Source: Thermococcus kodakarensis KOD1
GTDB taxonomy: Archaea; Methanobacteriota_B; Thermococci; Thermococcales; Thermococcaceae
Direction: 5' to 3'
NCBI RefSeq assembly: GCF_000009965.1
Contig: NC_006624.1
Span: 960,001-992,000 of the forward strand
Length of the DNA stretch: 32,000 nt
Shown here: positions 21,451 to 30,157 of the stretch, one piece after another
Position numbering within the stretch: position 1 is the first letter of the stretch
How the letters are laid out: each line of letters starts with the position of its first letter
Notes under the pieces: generated by a model
The model's input: only the letters and a program-made list of their open reading frames with translations
Told to the model about the DNA's origin: nothing
The model's database searches: none
Translations under genes and position numbers: made by a program

Positions 21451-21636
21451 GTGGGGGAAGTGGAGAAAACTGGATATGTAGCCCTCAACCGAGAGTGGCG
21501 GGCTAAAATGGACGAGCTCAGAGCAAGAGCAAGAGCGAACCTTGATGACGTCCTCCAACGGGCTTTTGGCTCCATAAAGTCCGAGAAGTCCTGGCGCGAG
21601 CTGGAGGCTGAGCTCTATGAGGAGCTTTCTAGTTGA
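21451..21636 (+). CDS. Putative VapB-like antitoxin
   Basis: 61-aa charged helical ORF immediately upstream of the PIN gene and overlapping it by 20 nt. GTG start at 21451 or 21460, behind GGTGGGGG. Assigned by position and size only. Confidence 0.5.
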   Translation: MGEVEKTGYVALNREWRAKMDELRARARANLDDVLQRAFGSIKSEKSWRELEAELYEELSS

Positions 21637-22084
21637 TAGTAATGTGTTCATTGAAGCCCTTAAAGGCGATACTACCGCAGAAAACCTCCTCACGAAGCTG
21701 TTTCACTCAAACTGGCGGGTTTTCATAAACGACGTTGTTTTCAGCGAGGTTTTTTACCATTATCTCCGCATTAAGGTCGGCCCTTACTGGAAGGCCAAAA
21801 AGAAACCCGAACTCGTTAAATCTGCCGTGCAGGAGTTTGAGGAGGTTGTTCTACCTCTCCTTGCAATACCCGACTTTCTTGAGGTTAATTATGATGTAGC
21901 CACTATTGCCGTTAGGCTGTCTTCTGAGTACAGTCTGCTGCCTAACGATGCTCTTCTGCTTGCCACTGCAGAATACTACGGAATAGAGGCCTTAGTATCT
22001 CTTGATTCAGATTTCTCAGATGCTTGTAACAGAGAAGGCATATTACTAGTGTCATATCTAAATGAGCTGGAGGTGCAGCCATGA
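21617..22084 (+). CDS. vapC: PIN-domain ribonuclease, VapC-type toxin
   Basis: MRSFLVDSNVFIEAL... (N-terminal acidic D)...LLPNDALLLATA...LVSLDSDF is the PIN acidic quartet pattern. SD GGAGG lies 9 nt upstream. Confidence 0.85.
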   Translation: MRSFLVDSNVFIEALKGDTTAENLLTKLFHSNWRVFINDVVFSEVFYHYLRIKVGPYWKAKKKPELVKSAVQEFEEVVLPLLAIPDFLEVNYDVATIAVRLSSEYSLLPNDALLLATAEYYGIEALVSLDSDFSDACNREGILLVSYLNELEVQP

Positions 22085-22898: not shown

Positions 22899-23002
22899 GA
22901 TGATGCGTTCAAGACCATCTTTAATAAGCCTTACCAAAAAACTTTTAAATACCAAAAGTTATTTTAACAATGGGTAAGAAAAAGTTTGAGGGGGTGATGG
23001 GA

Positions 23003-23431
23003 ATGGCCGAGGAGAAGAAGACCAGAACCCTTGAGCAGATTCAGGACGAGATTAGGAGCTACCTCGGTGAGATTGAGTACCTCAGGAGCCAGGTCGGCGT
23101 TATTGACGCTACCATAACTGACCTCAGGACGGTTGACGCGACCCTGGCCTACCTCAAGGAGAAGGGCAAGGGCAAAGAAATCTACATCCCGCTCGGAAGC
23201 GGTGTGGCAATCAGGGGTAAGATCGAGAATCCGGACGATGTCATCATGGACGTTGGAGCGGGAATACTCGTTGGGGCAACCGTTGACGAGGCCAGGGAAA
23301 ACATCGAGAAGAGGATCAAGGCCCTCATGGACCTCCGCCTGGCCCTGCTGAGGAAGATTGAGGAGGACACCAGGAAGGTCAACGAGCTCCTCAAGGAGCT
23401 CCAGGAGATGCAGCCTGAGAAGAGAGAGTGA
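23003..23431 (+). CDS. pfdA: Prefoldin alpha subunit
   Basis: MAEEKKTRTLEQIQDEIRSYLGEIEYLRSQ...IYIPLGSGVAIRGKIENPDDVIMDVGAGILV...: coiled coil, beta hairpins, coiled coil. SD GAGGGGGTGA lies before the ATG at 23003. The ATG at 22970 is a possible leaderless alternative. Confidence 0.85.
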   Translation: MAEEKKTRTLEQIQDEIRSYLGEIEYLRSQVGVIDATITDLRTVDATLAYLKEKGKGKEIYIPLGSGVAIRGKIENPDDVIMDVGAGILVGATVDEARENIEKRIKALMDLRLALLRKIEEDTRKVNELLKELQEMQPEKRE

Positions 23432-23466
23432 CTCCCATCACCCCTTTTTATTTGGAGGTGGTTTCT

Positions 23467-23766
23467 ATGGAGGCCGTTAGGGCCTACGAACTTCAGCTAG
23501 AGCTCCAGCAGATAAGAACCCTCAGGCAGAGCCTTGAGCTGAAAATGAAGGAGCTTGAATACGCCGAAGGGATAATAACTTCCCTGAAATCCGAGAGGAG
23601 AATCTACAGAGCCTTCAGCGATCTTCTGGTTGAGATAACCAGAGATGAAGCCATAGAGCACATCGAGAGGAGCAGGCTCGTCTACAAGAGAGAGATCGAG
23701 AAGCTCAAGAAAAGGGAGAAGGAAATAATGGAAGAGCTGTCAAAACTCAAAGCTCCCCTCTCTTAG
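23467..23766 (+). CDS. pfdB: Prefoldin beta subunit-like protein
   Basis: 99 aa: coiled coil, a single beta hairpin (RIYRAFSDLLVEITRDEA), coiled coil. SD GGAGGTG lies 6 nt before the ATG. It is adjacent to the alpha subunit gene. Confidence 0.75.
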   Translation: MEAVRAYELQLELQQIRTLRQSLELKMKELEYAEGIITSLKSERRIYRAFSDLLVEITRDEAIEHIERSRLVYKREIEKLKKREKEIMEELSKLKAPLS

Positions 23767-24307
23767 CCTTCTCTCCGAGTTCAAACCCTTTGTGAAGGGC
23801 CCTCAGGTTGATCTGCTCCGTCCCCTTTGGAACGGCATCGAGGACGGCCTTTTCTATCGCTTCCCTGCTCACTATCTCAGTCCAGGCAGTCAGGACGCCA
23901 AGGGCGAGGATGTTCATCGTCAGGCTCAGGCCGGTGGTCTCCTCCGCTATCTCAGTGAGCGGGAGCGCCAAAACATCGAGATTCTTCTCGAACTCAAGGT
24001 CCCTGTGCGGGACGAGGTCTTTCTCTACGATGACCTTTGCACCCTCTTTGACGGTGTGGAGATACTTGGTGTAGGCCTCCTGGGAGAAGAAGACCGCGTA
24101 GTCGGGGCTGAGGGTCTTGGGGTAGTCTATCGGCTCGTCGCTGATGACAACCTCGGCCTTGCTAGCGCCACCCCTTGATTCTGGCCCATAGGCCTGGGTC
24201 TGGACAGCGTAGAGACCCTCATAAACAGCTGCTGCCCTTCCGAGGATGACGCTCGCGAGGATGACACCCTGACCTCCAAAGCCGCTGAAGAGGACTTCCT
24301 TCCTCAT
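23747..24307 (-). CDS. korG: 2-oxoacid:ferredoxin oxidoreductase gamma subunit (set 2)
   Basis: MRKEVLFSGFGGQGVILASVILGRAA...AYGPESRGGASKAEVVISDEPI. The ATG overlaps the upstream beta stop (ATGA). Confidence 0.9.
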   Translation of the reverse strand: MRKEVLFSGFGGQGVILASVILGRAAAVYEGLYAVQTQAYGPESRGGASKAEVVISDEPIDYPKTLSPDYAVFFSQEAYTKYLHTVKEGAKVIVEKDLVPHRDLEFEKNLDVLALPLTEIAEETTGLSLTMNILALGVLTAWTEIVSREAIEKAVLDAVPKGTEQINLRALHKGFELGEKAKRGEL

Positions 24308-25152
24308 TCTTCCCACCCCATCATCTTCTTGGCCCTCTTTATGTACTCACGGTACTCCCTAACGAGCCCCGGCCTGTCCCTGTCGGCGAACTCGCCAATG
24401 ACTATCTTGCCCTCAAGCTCCTCTGGGGACATTTTCTTGGCCTTTGCCAGCGGGACGGTTATCTTCTGGTACCAGCGGATGAGCTCCGGGGCGGTCTTCA
24501 TCCTGTTCCTTCTTCCGAAGCTGATCGGACATGGCGAGAGGAACTCCACGAGCGTGAAGCCCTCCTTCTGGAGCGCCTTCTTTATGCTGTTTATGCCCTG
24601 GAGGTAGTTGAAGACCGTCCACCTGGCCACGTAGTTGGCCCCGGCAGAAACCGCGAGCTGGGCTATGTCAAACGGGTTCTCGAACTGGCCGTAGGGAGCT
24701 GTCGTCCCCTTGAGACCCTTGAGTGCCGTCGGGGCGACCTGGCCGCCGGTCATTCCGTAGGTGAAGTTGTTGATGAGGATAACGGTGACGTCGAGGTTCC
24801 TCCTTATGGCGTGGATGAGGTGGTTTCCGCCGATAGCTGCTGCGTCTCCGTCTCCCATGAAGGCTATTATCTTGAGGTCCGGGTTGGTCAGCTTTATTCC
24901 CGTTGCGAACGCTAAAGCCCTTCCGTGAGTCGTGTGAAGGCCGTCGAAGTTAACAAAACCTGGAACACGGGAGGAACAGCCGATACCGCTCACCCAGACT
25001 ATCTCGTCCTGGTTCAGGCCGAGATCGTCTATTGCCCTGAGCGTGAACTGGAGGACTGAGCCTATACCACAGCCTGGACAGAATATCGTCGGGAGCATGT
25101 CCTTTCTGAGGTACTTCTCACGTATCTCGTAAGCGGACTTCAGGTACATCAT
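24304..25152 (-). CDS. korB: 2-oxoacid:ferredoxin oxidoreductase beta subunit, TPP-binding (set 2)
   Basis: MMYLKSAYEIREKYLRKDMLPTIFCPGCGIGSV...FMGDGDAAAIGGNHLIH...NNFTYGMTGGQ. The start at 25152 overlaps the alpha stop. The track's 64-aa Arg/Gly-rich extension lies inside korA and is rejected. Confidence 0.9.
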   Translation of the reverse strand: MMYLKSAYEIREKYLRKDMLPTIFCPGCGIGSVLQFTLRAIDDLGLNQDEIVWVSGIGCSSRVPGFVNFDGLHTTHGRALAFATGIKLTNPDLKIIAFMGDGDAAAIGGNHLIHAIRRNLDVTVILINNFTYGMTGGQVAPTALKGLKGTTAPYGQFENPFDIAQLAVSAGANYVARWTVFNYLQGINSIKKALQKEGFTLVEFLSPCPISFGRRNRMKTAPELIRWYQKITVPLAKAKKMSPEELEGKIVIGEFADRDRPGLVREYREYIKRAKKMMGWEE

Positions 25153-26297
25153 CCCACCACCCTCTCGACTATCTCCATTGGAGTGTGAACCTCGCCGCCT
25201 ATCTTGCTTATCAGTTCGACCTCGGCCTTCCCATTCGCTCCTTCCTTGACGAGGTGGTAGAGCTGTCCCATGTTCATCTCTGGAACGAAGATTTTCTTCA
25301 CCTGCTCGGCCAGCTCCTCCATCATGTCGAAGTCGAAGGGCCATATCGTGTTGAGCTTGAGCAGTCCGGCCTTGATGCCCTTCTCGCGGAGGATTTTGAC
25401 GGCCCTGATGGCGGATCGGGAGACGATACCTGTAGAGACTATCGCAACATCCGCATCGTCGAGCTCAAACTTTTCATAACTGATTATGTCGTGCTTGTTG
25501 TTCTCTATCTTGCCGATGATCCTCTTTATGAGCCTCTCGTGGACTTCCGCATCAACGGTCTTCGGCCTTCCGCGCTCGTCGTGGGTCAGTCCCGTGACGT
25601 ACGTCCGGTAGCCCTTTCCGAAGATCGGCATCGGCGGAATTCCATCGCCGTGTGGATCGCCGAAGGGAAGCTTTGCTTCTTCCTCGTTCTGCGGGAGTTT
25701 GCGGTAAACGAGTTCGATATCGTCCGGGTTCGGGATGTAAACGCGCTCCCTCATGTGGGCCACTTCCGCGTCGGTGAGAAGAACAACCGGAGTCCTGTAC
25801 TTCTCGGCTAGGTTGAATGCCCTTATCGTGAAGTCGAAGGCCTCCTGGACGGTAGATGGAGAAAGCACTATGAGGGTGTGGTCGCCGTGGGTGCCCCAGA
25901 TCGACTGCATTATGTCGCCCTGGGCGGCAAGCGTTGGCTGACCCGTGCTCGGTCCACCCCTCTGGACGTCTACGACCACAATTGGAGTCTCGGTCATCAC
26001 AGCGTAGCCAATGTTCTCCTGCATGAGTGAGAACCCCGGCCCGGAAGTAGCTGTCATCGCCTTCGCTCCGGCCCAGGAGGCTCCGATGATGGCCGCTATG
26101 CTCGCTATCTCGTCCTCCATCTGTATGCTCACGCCGTCAACGAGCGGCATGTAGAGGGCCATCGCCTCGAATATCTCGCTGGCGGGTGTTATCGGGTAGC
26201 CAGCGTAGAAGCGGCATCCGGCTAAGATGGCCGCCCTCGCTATGGCCTCATCGCCTTGGATAAAGTCAGCCTTTCCAACGGGAAACGGGTATCTCAT
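25149..26297 (-). CDS. korA: 2-oxoacid:ferredoxin oxidoreductase alpha subunit (set 2)
   Basis: ...GCRFYAGYPITPASEIFEAMA...MTATSGPGFSLMQENIGYAVMTETPIVVVDVQRGGPSTGQPT... Confidence 0.9.
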   Translation of the reverse strand: MRYPFPVGKADFIQGDEAIARAAILAGCRFYAGYPITPASEIFEAMALYMPLVDGVSIQMEDEIASIAAIIGASWAGAKAMTATSGPGFSLMQENIGYAVMTETPIVVVDVQRGGPSTGQPTLAAQGDIMQSIWGTHGDHTLIVLSPSTVQEAFDFTIRAFNLAEKYRTPVVLLTDAEVAHMRERVYIPNPDDIELVYRKLPQNEEEAKLPFGDPHGDGIPPMPIFGKGYRTYVTGLTHDERGRPKTVDAEVHERLIKRIIGKIENNKHDIISYEKFELDDADVAIVSTGIVSRSAIRAVKILREKGIKAGLLKLNTIWPFDFDMMEELAEQVKKIFVPEMNMGQLYHLVKEGANGKAEVELISKIGGEVHTPMEIVERVVG

Positions 26298-26806
26298 TTC
26301 AATCCCTCCTCATAACCTGCCCTGAAGGCGCGGAGGTTTATCTCCTCGGTTCCCTTCGGGACGCGCCTCCTTATGGCCTCTTCAACGTTTTCCTTTTTCA
26401 CAACGCCTGTCTTCGCAACAAGGTAACCTAAGGCCACCATGTTGACCGTCAGAGCAAGTCCCGTCGTTTCCTCCGCGAGCCTCGTGAAGGGAGCACCGAT
26501 GTAGTCCCTATCGGGCTTAACGAGGTCGGTGTCGATAATGAGAAGGCCGTCCTCTTTGAGGGAGTCCTTAACGGTGTCGTAGCCGAGCTGGTGGAGGGCC
26601 ACCAGAACGTCTGCCTCGGTGACCATCACGTCGTAGATGGGTTCTTTAGAGATTATCACGTCGGCTATCGAGTGGCCGCCCCTGCTGGCCGAGCTGTAGT
26701 CCTGCGTCTGAAGGACGTTGAGGCCCTCAATAGCTGCTGCTTCACCGAGGATGACACCGGCCAGGACGACGCCCTGGCCGCCTATACCAGCGAGTCTAAT
26801 CTGCAT
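26294..26806 (-). CDS. korG: 2-oxoacid:ferredoxin oxidoreductase gamma subunit (set 1, displaced from its alpha/beta genes by the TA pair)
   Basis: MQIRLAGIGGQGVVLAGVILGEAAA...DYSSASRGGHSIADVIISKEPI. The ATG at 26806 and its SD GGAGGG both lie inside the 3' end of the HEPN gene. Confidence 0.9.
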   Translation of the reverse strand: MQIRLAGIGGQGVVLAGVILGEAAAIEGLNVLQTQDYSSASRGGHSIADVIISKEPIYDVMVTEADVLVALHQLGYDTVKDSLKEDGLLIIDTDLVKPDRDYIGAPFTRLAEETTGLALTVNMVALGYLVAKTGVVKKENVEEAIRRRVPKGTEEINLRAFRAGYEEGLK

Positions 26807-27191
26807 CGTTCTTACCCTCCAGATAAGATTTTGTGAAAGCCAAAAACTCCTCAGCATACCTCAAAACTTCTCTCGCGTCCCTTTCAGTGTACTCGACGAA
26901 AGCATCGTAATCGGCAGTGTGGCGCATGTTGAGGGCTTTTGAGTAGCCCGTGTAAAGCCTCGCGGGCATTTCCCCGGTCTTCACGAACTCTTTTCCGAGC
27001 TGGGCATGAACTCCAGCGTGGCTCTTCGGCGTTATGCCCTTGGAGAGGAGAAGCGCTCTCGCGCAGTAGAACATAACGTAGTAGGCGCTTGAGATGGCGA
27101 AGGCGTAGTGGCCCCTCTCAAAAAGCTCCCTTGAAGCAGCGAGCCTCTCTTCGGCTTTTCTGAGAAGCGCCCTGATCTCATCCGCGTTCAT
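26796..27191 (-). CDS. HEPN-domain protein (putative toxin of a HEPN-MNT pair)
   Basis: 131-aa four-helix protein ...AASRELFERGHYAFAISSAYYVMFYCARALLLSKGI...ALNMRHTADYDAF... is the HEPN family pattern, including the R-x-x-x-DY region. The ATG overlaps the MNT stop (ATGA). Confidence 0.85.
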   Translation of the reverse strand: MNADEIRALLRKAEERLAASRELFERGHYAFAISSAYYVMFYCARALLLSKGITPKSHAGVHAQLGKEFVKTGEMPARLYTGYSKALNMRHTADYDAFVEYTERDAREVLRYAEEFLAFTKSYLEGKNDAD

Positions 27192-27475
27192 ACTGCGATT
27201 CCCTCCGTTTTTGCCGTGTTGTAGAGGCTGTCCTTCTTGGAAGTGTGGGGCATTATCATGACCGAGATCCCGAGCTCGAGGGTGAGCTCCGCACTCAGCT
27301 TTCCTATCTCGTCCCAGTCCTCAGCCTTTATCTCATCTTTGAGGACGAGAAGAACGTCGAGGTCGCTGTCTTCTCTGTGGTCCCCTCTAACCCTTGAACC
27401 GAAGATGATTACTTCCTCAACCCTGTCACCAAAGGCCTCCCTCAGCCTTCTGCCGATGGCCTCAAACTCCATCAT
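27188..27475 (-). CDS. Minimal nucleotidyltransferase (MNT; putative antitoxin of a HEPN-MNT pair)
   Basis: MMEFEAIGRRLREAFGDRVEEVIIFGSRVRGDHREDSDLDVLLVL carries the GSxxRG...DxD pol-beta-type NTase signature. The ATG at 27475 (or 27472) lies inside the last codons of korB. Confidence 0.85.
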   Translation of the reverse strand: MMEFEAIGRRLREAFGDRVEEVIIFGSRVRGDHREDSDLDVLLVLKDEIKAEDWDEIGKLSAELTLELGISVMIMPHTSKKDSLYNTAKTEGIAV

Positions 27476-28328
27476 CTTCACCCTTAAGCCCAAAGTGCTC
27501 TTGAACTTCATCTATCAGCTTGTTGAGCTCGCTAACGAACTCCGGCCTCTCCCTGTTCACGAACTCCCCGATGACGAACTTGTCCTCAAGTTCTTCTGGC
27601 GACATCTTCTTCGCCTTGCTTATGGGAACTGAATTCTTGAGGAACCAGCGGAGCATCTCGGCGGGTTCCTTCATCCTGTTCCTCCTTCCGAACTGGACGG
27701 GACACTGGGAGACAACTTCAACGAGCGAGAATCCCTTAACCTGAAGGGCCTTCTTTATGCTCTCAATGAGCTGGTAAACGTGGGCCGTTGTCCAGCGGGC
27801 GACGTAGGAGGCCCCAGCGGCGGCAACAGTTTCGCTTATCTGAAGCGGGTGTTCTATGTTGCGGTAGGGAGTTGTCGTAGTCTTTGCACCGAAGGGTGTC
27901 GTTGGGGCAACCTGGCCACCGGTCATTCCGTATATCATATTATTAACTAAGATGACCGTTATGTCGATGTTCCTCCTCGCGGCGTGGATGAGGTGGTTCC
28001 CGCCTATGCTGGCCAGATCACCGTCCCCACTTATTACGACGACCTTCTTGTCGGGAAGTCCGACCTTAACGCCGGTTGCAAAGGCTATGGCCCTTCCGTG
28101 AGTAGTGTGAAGAGTGTCGGCGAGGAAATACGGTGAGGCTATCCAGGCGGAACAGCCGATACCGCTGACAACAACGAGGTCTTTCGGGTCTATCCTGAGC
28201 TGGTCAACGGCGTTTGCGAAGGCATTGAGGACGGTTCCACCCCCACAGCCTGGGCAGAGGGCAGTGGGAAGTGCCTCCTTTCTCAAGTATTTGACCATAG
28301 GATAGCGTGAGTAGATTTCCTTTGCCAT
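27462..28328 (-). CDS. korB: 2-oxoacid:ferredoxin oxidoreductase beta subunit, TPP-binding (set 1)
   Basis: MAKEIYSRYPMVKYLRKEALPTALCPGCGGGTV...ISGDGDLASIGGNHLIHAARRN...NNMIYGMTGGQ. The ATG overlaps the alpha stop (TGATG). Confidence 0.9.
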   Translation of the reverse strand: MAKEIYSRYPMVKYLRKEALPTALCPGCGGGTVLNAFANAVDQLRIDPKDLVVVSGIGCSAWIASPYFLADTLHTTHGRAIAFATGVKVGLPDKKVVVISGDGDLASIGGNHLIHAARRNIDITVILVNNMIYGMTGGQVAPTTPFGAKTTTTPYRNIEHPLQISETVAAAGASYVARWTTAHVYQLIESIKKALQVKGFSLVEVVSQCPVQFGRRNRMKEPAEMLRWFLKNSVPISKAKKMSPEELEDKFVIGEFVNRERPEFVSELNKLIDEVQEHFGLKGEDDGV

Positions 28329-29518
28329 CAGGCAACACCCCTTATCTCGCGGAGAATCTCGTTAACCGTTAGAGGGACTCCGCCTATCTTGTTCACGCCC
28401 TTGAGGAGAACGTCGTCGTTGACATACCTCTGAACCTCCAGTATCATCTGGCCGAGGTTCATCTCCGGGACGAGTACGGCCCGGACTTTCTTTCCGAGCG
28501 CCCTCATCCGCTCCCCCGGGAACGGGTGGACGGTCTTGGGTACGAATAGCCCGGCTTTGATTCCCTCTTCCCTCGCCTTTAGAACTGCCCCGAGGGCCGG
28601 CCTTGCCGTTACACCCCAGCTGACGACGAGAATTTCCGCGTCGTCCGTGAAGTACTCCTCGTACTTTTCATAGACGTGCCTGTTCTGCTCGATCTTCCTG
28701 TGAAGTCTCCTCACGAGCCTGTCGTGGACTTCGGGGGTGTAGACATCACGAAGGCCATTCTCCTTGTGCGTTGAACCCGTGACGTGGGTGAAGTAGCCGT
28801 GGCCGAAGAGGGGCATCGGCGGAACACCGTCACCGTGCGGGTCTCCAAAGGGAAGCCTGGCCTCTTCTTCATTCTGCGGGAGCTTGCGGTAGGTAATTTC
28901 AACTTCTTCCACATCGGGTATCTTGACGAGCTCCCTCGTGTGGGCGAGAACGCCGTCGAAGAGCATGACAACTGGCGTCCTGAGCCTCTCGGCTATGTTG
29001 AACGCCCTGATTATCTCCCAGAAGGCATCCTGCCCGCTCGTCGGCGAGAGGGCTATTATCGGATGATCGCCGTGGGTTCCCCAGCGGGCCTGGAAGAAGT
29101 CCCCCTGCGCTCCCTTGGTCGCCTGACCGGTTGATGGGCCGCTCCTCTGGACATCAACGAGAACTAAAGGTGTTTCAGTCATGACCGCGTATCCAAGGTT
29201 CTCCTGCATGAGCGAGAAGCCCGGGCCTGCGGTTGCCGTCATGACCTTGAGGCCCGTCCAGGATGCGCCGACCATCGCCGCTATGCTCCCTATCTCATCC
29301 TCCATCTGGAGATAGTAGCCACCGAGCTTTGGAAGCTCTCTCGCCATCGTCTCGGCTATCTCGCTTGAGGGGGTTATAGGATAGCCTGCGTAGAAGCGGC
29401 AGCCGGCGAAGATAGCTCCATAGGCAACGGCCTCGTTGCCCTGCATGAAGTAGTTGCCAGGTTTGTAGAGCTTCTTGATGAGCCTGATCTGCTCAGGCTC
29501 GTCGCCGCGGATTATCAT
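28328..29518 (-). CDS. korA: 2-oxoacid:ferredoxin oxidoreductase alpha subunit (set 1)
   Basis: ...GCRFYAGYPITPSSEIAETMA...MTATAGPGFSLMQENLGYAVMTETPLVLVDVQRSGPSTGQAT... SD AGGTGGTGA lies in front of the ATG. Confidence 0.9.
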   Translation of the reverse strand: MIIRGDEPEQIRLIKKLYKPGNYFMQGNEAVAYGAIFAGCRFYAGYPITPSSEIAETMARELPKLGGYYLQMEDEIGSIAAMVGASWTGLKVMTATAGPGFSLMQENLGYAVMTETPLVLVDVQRSGPSTGQATKGAQGDFFQARWGTHGDHPIIALSPTSGQDAFWEIIRAFNIAERLRTPVVMLFDGVLAHTRELVKIPDVEEVEITYRKLPQNEEEARLPFGDPHGDGVPPMPLFGHGYFTHVTGSTHKENGLRDVYTPEVHDRLVRRLHRKIEQNRHVYEKYEEYFTDDAEILVVSWGVTARPALGAVLKAREEGIKAGLFVPKTVHPFPGERMRALGKKVRAVLVPEMNLGQMILEVQRYVNDDVLLKGVNKIGGVPLTVNEILREIRGVA

Positions 29519-29521
29519 GCG

Positions 29522-29794
29522 TCACCACCTTACCGCTATGGCGAAGTCCGGGCAGAGCAGCTCACAGAGCTTGCACTTGACGCACTTTTCAGCGTTGACG
29601 GGAACAGGATAATGGACGCCCTTTTCGCTCAGCTCCTTGCTCCATTCGAAGACCTTTCTCGGGCACATCTCGACGCAGATTCCGCATCCCTTGCACAGAA
29701 AAGTATCGATGTCAATCTCAACTATTCCCTCGGCTTTGCCGATAACGAGGTATCCTTCCTTTTCAACGGTTGTCTTGGTTTCGACATCTGCCAT
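29522..29794 (-). CDS. korD: 2-oxoacid:ferredoxin oxidoreductase delta subunit (2x[4Fe-4S] ferredoxin-like)
   Basis: CKGCGICVEMCP and CVKCKLCELLCP cluster motifs. I prefer the ATG at 29794, behind SD GGGTGA; the track start is at 29839. TATA CTTTAAAT on the minus strand lies around 29838-29848. Confidence 0.85.
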   Translation of the reverse strand: MADVETKTTVEKEGYLVIGKAEGIVEIDIDTFLCKGCGICVEMCPRKVFEWSKELSEKGVHYPVPVNAEKCVKCKLCELLCPDFAIAVRW

Positions 29795-30157
29795 AATCAT
29801 CACCCGCGATTTGCTAACCCCGTTTACGTTTGTCAACATTTAAAGCTTTCGTGAGAGAACATTAATGTCCATAAAAGATGTACTGGTTGGGTTTATACAC
29901 CCCAAGAAAAAGCAAGAGGACATGGAGCAGAAAAGAGAAGAAAATTCATCACGTCAATAACAATCGCAGGCACATAGGTTCAAAGTTCCTCATGGGCCCA
30001 CGGTATTTTGAATCGATAAGAGTTGTAAATAATTACTAAATATCATAATCATGAAATGGAAAATCTTATATCTACTCACAACTTATTATATTACAGTAGT
30101 ACATTGTGACCCAACTGAGTAAATCCACATGGTTAATTCCAAAGTGGAGGTGAGCAA

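Follow-up and report, generated by a model that had tools for sequence, protein, structure and literature searches.

Why does a two-gene module of toxin-antitoxin type sit between two subunit genes of a metabolic enzyme? The question is raised by a 32,000-nucleotide (nt) stretch of the Thermococcus kodakarensis KOD1 genome (NC_006624.1, positions 960001-992000; hereafter the window), in which genes for a minimal nucleotidyltransferase (MNT; TK1128) and a HEPN protein (TK1127) lie between korB1 and korG1 of the operon for 2-oxoglutarate:ferredoxin oxidoreductase (OGOR). The pair is read here, with a probability of about 0.6, as a two-gene MNT-HEPN passenger module of the type termed Class II, carried inside the OGOR operon and lacking a separate mapped promoter. 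The module is of an ordinary, known type and does not represent a novel system; what sets it apart is its place as an operon hitchhiker. Both genes were already annotated (by exact-sequence look-up, RefSeq names TK1127 'HEPN domain-containing protein' and TK1128 'nucleotidyltransferase'), and the type of the module and its position were already known and in print. What is new is the fidelity of the pair to one site, decay that in every case involves HEPN, exchange of the cassette between lineages, a Shine-Dalgarno (SD) site borne by the HEPN gene, and a sister clade embedded in a hyp operon.

The placement of the pair between korB1 and korG1, proposed in an original prediction made from this DNA, was borne out by coordinates and by Pfam matches. 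Window coordinates plus 960000 equalled the gene coordinates in Table S7 of Jaeger et al. 2014 (PMC4247193) for all genes checked (TK1118-TK1120 and TK1125-TK1133). All nine genes of the operon are on the minus strand; korDABG is followed by a second korABG behind one promoter, as in an OGOR operon, and the kor gene order was also found in 31 related loci. The seven kor genes are described as OGOR subunits in PMC12016516 and in Yokooji et al. 2013 as cited in PMC9986279.

The junctions were read base by base and were as predicted. The MNT gene starts at ATG 27475, 14 nt inside korB1, or 11 nt inside it if the RefSeq start at the next ATG (27472) is used; its stop shares an ATGA with the HEPN start (27191-27188, a 4-nt overlap). 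The korG1 start codon (26806-26804) precedes the HEPN TAG stop (26798-26796), giving an 11-nt overlap. In the second kor set, korB2 and korG2 overlap directly by ATGA at 24307-24304. SD-like GGGTGA, GGAGGG and GGAGGG were found 3-9 nt 5' of the MNT, HEPN and korG1 starts; that of MNT (27483-27478) lies in the korB1 tail, and that of korG1 (26820-26815) within the last HEPN codons. Since the genes overlap and an SD stands ahead of each start, translational coupling of the pair with the kor genes is plausible. Tight packing is the norm in this operon, in which neighbouring genes overlap or are no more than 3 nt apart.

Co-transcription of the pair with the kor genes, also predicted, was supported by published differential RNA sequencing, which serves as the transcription start site (TSS) check proposed with the prediction. 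One primary TSS, 989817(-) (window 29817), is listed for TK1131, and no further TSS is listed on either strand from there down to 982898 (Jaeger et al. 2014, Table S2, PMC4247193); Fig. S6B of PMC12016516 likewise gives 'only one TSS' for the operon. TTTAAAT at 29844-29838 is the only AT-only stretch of at least 7 nt upstream of the operon, and GGGTGAT and ATG 29794 follow downstream of the promoter and TSS. The korD open reading frame (ORF) extends up to 29839 (105 aa) and thus contains the TSS, so the annotated ATG at 29794, which gives 90 aa, is taken as the real start. Published raw read counts (Jaeger et al. 2014, library C) were divided by gene length and gave 0.34 reads/nt for TK1130, 0.42 for TK1129, 0.39 for TK1128, 0.32 for TK1127, 0.51 for TK1126 and 0.44 for TK1125, a flat density (0.32-0.51 reads/nt) with no step at the pair. 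As a single promoter serves the operon, it follows trivially that toxin:antitoxin dosage is tied to kor expression. With no mapped promoter of its own, the pair would have no transcriptional autoregulation of the kind known from classical type II modules, its dosage being set by a catabolic operon.

The flanks of the pair are free of TATA-like and oligo-T sequences, as had been predicted, and a sequence scan found no TATA-like AT stretch within or adjoining it. For oligo-T the prediction is true of the flanks alone, since two runs of five T (T5) lie inside the HEPN gene. The only AT-only stretch of at least 7 nt inside the operon, TTAATAATAT (27937-27946, minus strand), is in korB1, about 460 nt upstream of the MNT start, and no TSS is reported there in the published table. 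Apart from these two T5 tracts, the sense strand of the 6.1-kb operon has no run of at least five T, and read density showed no step past them. The tract at 26842-26846 arises from non-preferred codons TTT TTG (Phe-Leu); of the 11 kor-embedded HEPN genes in which this C-terminal region is still in place, 10 have the tract, although synonymous divergence (dS) is saturated, and it was not conserved in the hyp-embedded relatives described below. T5 density is 3.1 per kb in HEPN and 0.33 per kb in the kor genes. A sigma-70/hairpin scanner is unsuited to archaeal promoters and gave hits at shuffle level; it was used only for the weak hairpin before the tract at 27120-27124. A literature search found no Term-seq data for T. 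kodakarensis.

The families of both proteins are clear. TK1127 matched Pfam PF05168 (94.3 bits, cut-off 22, E = 7e-27) and TK1128 matched PF01909 (44.6 bits, cut-off 21, E = 2e-11). MNT carries the motif GS-x10-DxD as G26-S27-x10-D38-L39-D40 (27400-27356). In HEPN, R90-x4-Y95-D96 (R90-H-T-A-D-Y95-D96) is encoded at 26924-26904 and H58 at 27020-27018, and H58, H62, R90, D94, Y95 and D96 were invariant in 12 aligned orthologues. With a PF05168 HEPN, an upstream PF01909 MNT, no RX4H, a conserved Tyr and a second His, the pair has the features of Class II (AF0298-type) modules: Yao et al. 2020 (PMC7641770) define PF05168/PF01909 pairs as 'Class II', without RX4HXY and with the conserved Tyr and, in the MNTs, GS-x10-DxD kept. 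The likeness to these modules, which were predicted by Makarova et al. 2009, extends to the order of the genes (MNT 5' of HEPN), the 4-nt overlap, the Tyr near the Arg of the degenerate motif and the conserved H58, and to a hyperthermophilic archaeal host, such archaea being rich in Class II modules. Unlike them, TK1128/TK1127 has neither a mapped promoter nor intergenic DNA and lies between two metabolic-enzyme subunit genes.

The claim that a HEPN RNase is neutralised here by the MNT with type VII logic was accordingly not established. Type VII HepT/MntA modules (Class I; Shewanella oneidensis SO_3166/SO_3165 and the T. cleftensis pair) share the two-gene MNT-HEPN layout and the MNT catalytic motif, and Tyr95 of TK1127 is a candidate acceptor of AMP by its position near the motif. 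In contrast to them, TK1127 matched PF05168 alone and neither PF01934 nor PF08780 in Pfam, has no RX4HXY and matched no NCBIfam model, and TK1128 scored 34.3 bits against the NCBIfam MntA_antitoxin equivalog, below the cut-off of 60. Type VII logic is therefore an analogy for a pair of the PF05168 type with R-x4-Y in place of RX4H. For the AF0298-type family, which is without the motif His, Anantharaman et al. 2013 proposed that a second conserved His could form an alternative active site. The best structure matches of TK1127 were PDB 9xbd and 9xbc (E ~1e-16; 9xbd 8e-17), followed by 2hsb (AF0298; E = 1.5e-11). TK1127 aligned with them over nearly its full length, with R-x4-Y-D in register (RNRSDYD and REESDYG vs RHTADYD); they are only about 35-40% identical to it. 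The 9xbd entry is a HEPN:nucleotidyltransferase complex whose nucleotidyltransferase aligned with TK1128 (E = 4e-5), and 9xbc is a Tyr-to-Phe variant at the Tyr equivalent to Y95.

The pair was next compared across relatives. A genome scan with korG1 returned 25 Thermococcales kor loci (numbered with the prefix L); only loci containing exact korG1 peptide words were returned, and the scan missed many named Thermococcus and Pyrococcus genomes and T. kodakarensis itself. Among the 25, the pair was present in L001, L004, L008 and L010, and L003 had MNT with a HEPN remnant; the other 20 lacked it. Protein searches found 27 close HEPN homologues (at least 66% identity), and all those whose context was read sit at the same korB1|MNT|HEPN|korG1 junction, among them those of Pyrococcus kukulkanii, T. 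siculi, T. indicus, T. waiotapuensis and T. sp. MAR1 and of several metagenome-assembled genomes (MAGs). In neighbour-joining trees of the flanking Kor proteins, the occupied loci all fell in one clade, with P. kukulkanii, L088 and T. waiotapuensis near its base and seven empty loci nested within it. The outgroup loci were all empty, with an 11-nt korB1/korG1 overlap. The empty junction of L012 reads ...GLKEV, stop, ccc and the korG1 ATG, and in P. furiosus PF1767-PF1773 are contiguous. In five of the outgroup loci (L015, L018, L019, L024 and L025), korA1 and korB1 are separated by a spacer of about 85 nt; in T. kodakarensis they overlap by 1 nt.

Purifying selection acts on the pair in loci that have both genes intact (dN/dS ~0.13 in MNT and ~0.07 in HEPN; kor genes, 0.05-0.07), and the pair is dispensable for the operon. 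In L003 (6917-7000) an in-frame deletion has removed about 100 HEPN codons, leaving MNEVEAREIIEYAKEFLEFTKSYLEV before the stop; MNT, the ATGA overlap, the HEPN start and its last ~20 codons survive, as do the korG1 SD and the T5 tract, so the scaffold for translation is intact although the HEPN core is gone. HEPN of T. waiotapuensis lacks 12 aa and its MNT has DxG for DxD, and the HEPN C-terminus of L088 is frameshifted. HEPN was thus damaged in three of three cases of decay, with MNT intact in two (L003 and L088).

Divergence of the cassette and of its flanks was then compared. For most pairs of loci the two agreed (dS ~1.0 for T. kodakarensis vs T. siculi and ~0.3-0.4 vs L001). Between L004 (a Guaymas Thermococcus MAG; 1890-2570) and P. 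kukulkanii (L081:5720-6378), by contrast, cassette dS was 0.16-0.25 and flank dS 1.5 to more than 2.5; the cassette was 93-94% identical and the flanking kor genes 74-83%. In 60-nt windows, identity rose from 70-85% to 90-100% exactly across MNT-HEPN and dropped again within about 30 nt of its ends. T. indicus and T. sp. MAR1 gave the reverse pattern (flank dS 0.6, cassette dS at least 1.05). The mismatch in these two pairs indicates that the cassette has been exchanged laterally between lineages at the same site, in the L004/P. kukulkanii case with breakpoints at its borders. A single gain followed only by losses fits the flank tree and was rejected on the same mismatch; because of lateral exchange, gains and losses cannot be counted. 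Among inverted repeats and target-site duplications flanking the insert, only short repeats at chance level were found, so that the cassette did not resemble an insertion sequence or a miniature inverted-repeat transposable element. A reading of the similarity between the left and right junctions as a target-site duplication was rejected, that similarity being what SD constraints would give.

The nearest HEPN clade outside the kor operon (46-58% identity; T. prieurii and T. thioreducens) lies in the hydrogenase maturation cluster, at hypF|MNT|HEPN|hypE (L090:4678-5393, L091:4678-5396). As in the kor pair, MNT and HEPN overlap by 4 nt and the HEPN tail provides CTGGAGG as an SD for the next gene; 2 nt separate the HEPN stop from the ATG of hypE, and the tail ctGGAGGgtTGA contains the hypE SD. 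Apart from the hypF|hypE host, the hyp-embedded pairs differ in a longer MNT (108 aa) and in a 43-nt spacer with an AT-rich element before it, so they may have a promoter of their own. The HEPN tail of T. kodakarensis (...GKNDAD before the stop, 11-nt overlap) was considered as a relic of an ancestral korB1 tail, because outgroup genes end in ...GDEDAD with the same overlap. This was ruled out, since most occupied loci, including that of the basal P. kukulkanii, end in YLGV or YLEV with a 2-3-nt spacer and since the CTGGAGG tail is common to the hyp-embedded relatives. The HEPN/korG1 overlap seen in L001, T. siculi and T. kodakarensis is therefore derived, a 1-nt change of frame leading on to the TAG inside ATGCAGATTAG.

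Table 1. Genes, promoter and T5 tracts of the OGOR operon, in window coordinates.
Feature	Coordinates	Strand	Remarks
BRE/TATA (TFB-recognition element and TATA box) gaaagcTTTAAAT of the single operon promoter	29838..29850	-	Read from the sequence; TSS is G at 29817
korD (TK1131), delta ferredoxin-like subunit	29522..29794	-	Pfam Fer4 families; annotated coordinates agree
korA1 (TK1130)	28328..29518	-	POR_N, PFOR_II
korB1 (TK1129)	27462..28328	-	TPP_enzyme_C; TGA stop 27464-27462
MNT, minimal nucleotidyltransferase, 95 aa (TK1128, WP_011250079.1, BAD85317.1)	27188..27475	-	PF01909, PF18765
HEPN, AF0298/UPF0332-like, 131 aa (TK1127, WP_011250078.1, BAD85316.1, Q5JE57)	26796..27191	-	PF05168
Second T5 tract	27120..27124	-	Follows a weak 5-bp hairpin; seen in L001 and T. 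kodakarensis only
T5 tract, codons GAG TTT TTG	26842..26846	-	36 nt before korG1 ATG
korG1 (TK1126)	26294..26806	-	POR family
korA2 (TK1125)	25149..26297	-	Pfam
korB2 (TK1124)	24304..25152	-	Pfam
korG2 (TK1123)	23747..24307	-	Pfam; ATG at 24307

Two other explanations tie the pair to the function or the integrity of the operon. The original prediction had suggested an anti-deletion (addiction) device, in which the pair stabilises the tandem kor duplication because recombinational collapse of the array would delete it. The geometry fits, as the pair separates korA1 from korA2 and korB1 from korB2. In the comparison across Thermococcales that had been proposed for this idea, however, the duplication was kept regardless of the pair: all 20 pair-less loci among the 25 retain korA2, korB2 and korG2, and several lineages in which the pair is absent or decayed have an intact array. 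Both sets were found in every locus examined, outgroups included, and make distinct enzyme complexes in vivo (PMC12016516). They are old paralogues (57% amino-acid identity; 47% for korG1/korG2) with 69-71% DNA identity between korA1 and korA2 and between korB1 and korB2 and longest common exact words of 15 and 18 nt, and are therefore no substrate for homologous recombination. The operon-stabilising role is refuted by the test set for it in the prediction itself and is hardly credible. Alternatively, the pair may have become a domesticated OGOR regulator. It could, for instance, nucleotidylylate a Kor subunit, or cleave or attenuate the polycistronic mRNA; the balance between OGOR1 and OGOR2 subunits would then be under its control, or expression would be coupled to ATP status. 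One junction held across many species, strong purifying selection, expression obligatorily bound to kor and the T5 tract near korG1, conserved at synonymous sites in 10 of 11 orthologues and not in the hyp-embedded relatives, would all suit such a role. They have to be set against at least seven lineages of the same clade that do without the pair, with both kor sets kept at 20 of 20 empty loci, against the deleted HEPN core of L003, the exchange of the cassette independently of its flanks, a sister clade in an unrelated hyp operon, and a read density that does not fall past the T5 tract. TK1127 and TK1128 are also not among the proteins listed, in the available part of the PMC12016516 supplement, as co-purifying with three tagged OGOR subunits, which argues weakly in the same direction. 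Domestication for OGOR is on balance quite improbable.

A third explanation concerns what the two proteins do. In the original reading of MNT-HEPN pairs, they make up one nucleotidyltransferase of two subunits, in which MNT carries out catalysis and HEPN binds the substrate; the enzyme would modify a small molecule or macromolecule without toxicity. This would explain a HEPN without RX4H and the HEPN-nucleotidyltransferase association in the 9xbd complex; Anantharaman et al. 2013 recount the hypothesis and describe HEPN domains fused to nucleotidyltransferases as inactive substrate-binding domains, and Class II pairs are unvalidated as toxin-antitoxin systems (Yao et al. 2020). Decay, however, struck HEPN in all three cases and HEPN alone in L003 and L088, which is the order of loss to be expected of a HEPN that does harm once MNT is gone. 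The invariance of H58, R90 and Y95 fits the alternative active site proposed for the AF0298 family, and patchy, cassette-like lateral exchange is typical of selfish or defence modules. A non-toxic enzyme of this kind is considered unlikely, though less so than domestication.

For the passenger module preferred here, the following course is proposed. The pair would be transcribed only within the ~6-kb korD-to-korG2 mRNA, from the BRE/TATA promoter upstream of TK1131, and MNT and HEPN would each be translated from their own SD, that of MNT lying in a remodelled korB1 tail. The last HEPN codons would provide the korG1 SD, so that the insert would not be polar for the downstream kor genes. MNT is predicted to bind HEPN and to nucleotidylylate the invariant Tyr95 in R90-x4-Y95-D96; this modification may mask or restrain a HEPN activity that uses R90 and H58 in place of RX4H. 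The cassette holds the kor junction in one Thermococcales clade, decays toxin-first and is swapped between lineages as a discrete unit.

Several points weigh against this reading. The canonical RX4H(XY) RNase motif is absent from TK1127, which has R-x4-Y instead, no biochemistry validates Class II pairs as toxin-antitoxin systems (Yao et al. 2020, PMC7641770), and no paper was found for PDB 9xbd or 9xbc. A HEPN dN/dS as low as that of a core enzyme, together with a long stay at one junction, also fits a host-beneficial role. The nested empty sites may be losses or never-occupied alleles, junction by junction either way. L004 is a 3.3-kb MAG contig and could be an assembly chimera; as its cassette is 93-94% and not 100% identical to that of P. 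kukulkanii, such a chimera would need a third, unsampled donor. The TSS map is not exhaustive, since plus-strand genes at 22970-23766 have no TSS in the table, and a weak internal promoter is possible. These genes, two in number, are convergent with korG2, whose 3' end they overlap by some 20 nt.

Other small genes were found at junctions of these operons. A 68-aa DUF2283 gene with ATGA overlaps at both ends lies between korG1 and korA2 in L010 (7510-7707), L012 (7510-7713) and L089 (6894-7100), T. sp. MAR1 being among the carriers. L012 carries it without the MNT-HEPN pair, and T. kodakarensis is without it. DUF2283 is often an antitoxin-like partner of DUF4258. In L090, a VapBC-like pair (AF2212-like plus PIN) lies between hypD and hypF. 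Within the window, a VapBC-like pair on the plus strand (21451-22084; a 61-aa ORF and the PIN protein TK1118) overlaps the PTPS/QueD-like TK1119 (to 22428) by 4 nt. A leaderless transcript is suggested by the only sense TSS listed for it, 981450, which falls 1 nt ahead of the 61-aa ORF, and TK1119 may be expressed from the toxin-antitoxin promoter. Small toxin-antitoxin-type genes thus appear to be common in the operon junctions of these compact genomes, which makes the pair in the kor operon less surprising. Escherichia coli mazEF, a toxin-antitoxin module co-transcribed with a host gene, lies downstream of relA. TK1128/TK1127 is like it in that a pair of toxin-antitoxin type is expressed off a host gene transcript. 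Pairs of the mazEF type stand at an operon end with an autoregulated promoter of their own; TK1128/TK1127, in contrast, is internal, with coding overlaps on both sides.

A broader picture is offered tentatively and with considerable doubt, that of the whole clade as an 'operon hitchhiker'. It would be a self-contained, promoterless cassette whose HEPN 3' codons serve as the SD of any host gene that comes next, so that at junctions with translational coupling (korB1|korG1, hypF|hypE) it would not be polar. Its expression would come at a cost to the host, it would be swapped as a unit among Thermococcales species, and its T5 tract may slightly attenuate the distal kor genes.

For work on the enzyme itself, any engineering or quantification of OGOR subunits must reckon with a korG1 SD located inside TK1127. 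For the module family, no toxin-antitoxin type predicted in hyperthermophilic archaea is more frequent than Class II HEPN-MNT, of which no member has been validated. As T. kodakarensis is a genetically tractable model organism, TK1127/TK1128 lends itself as a natural case on which such modules can be tested, and its relatives offer ready-made designs in the form of natural scarless deletions, an in-frame deletion of the toxin core and an MNT with DxD changed to DxG.

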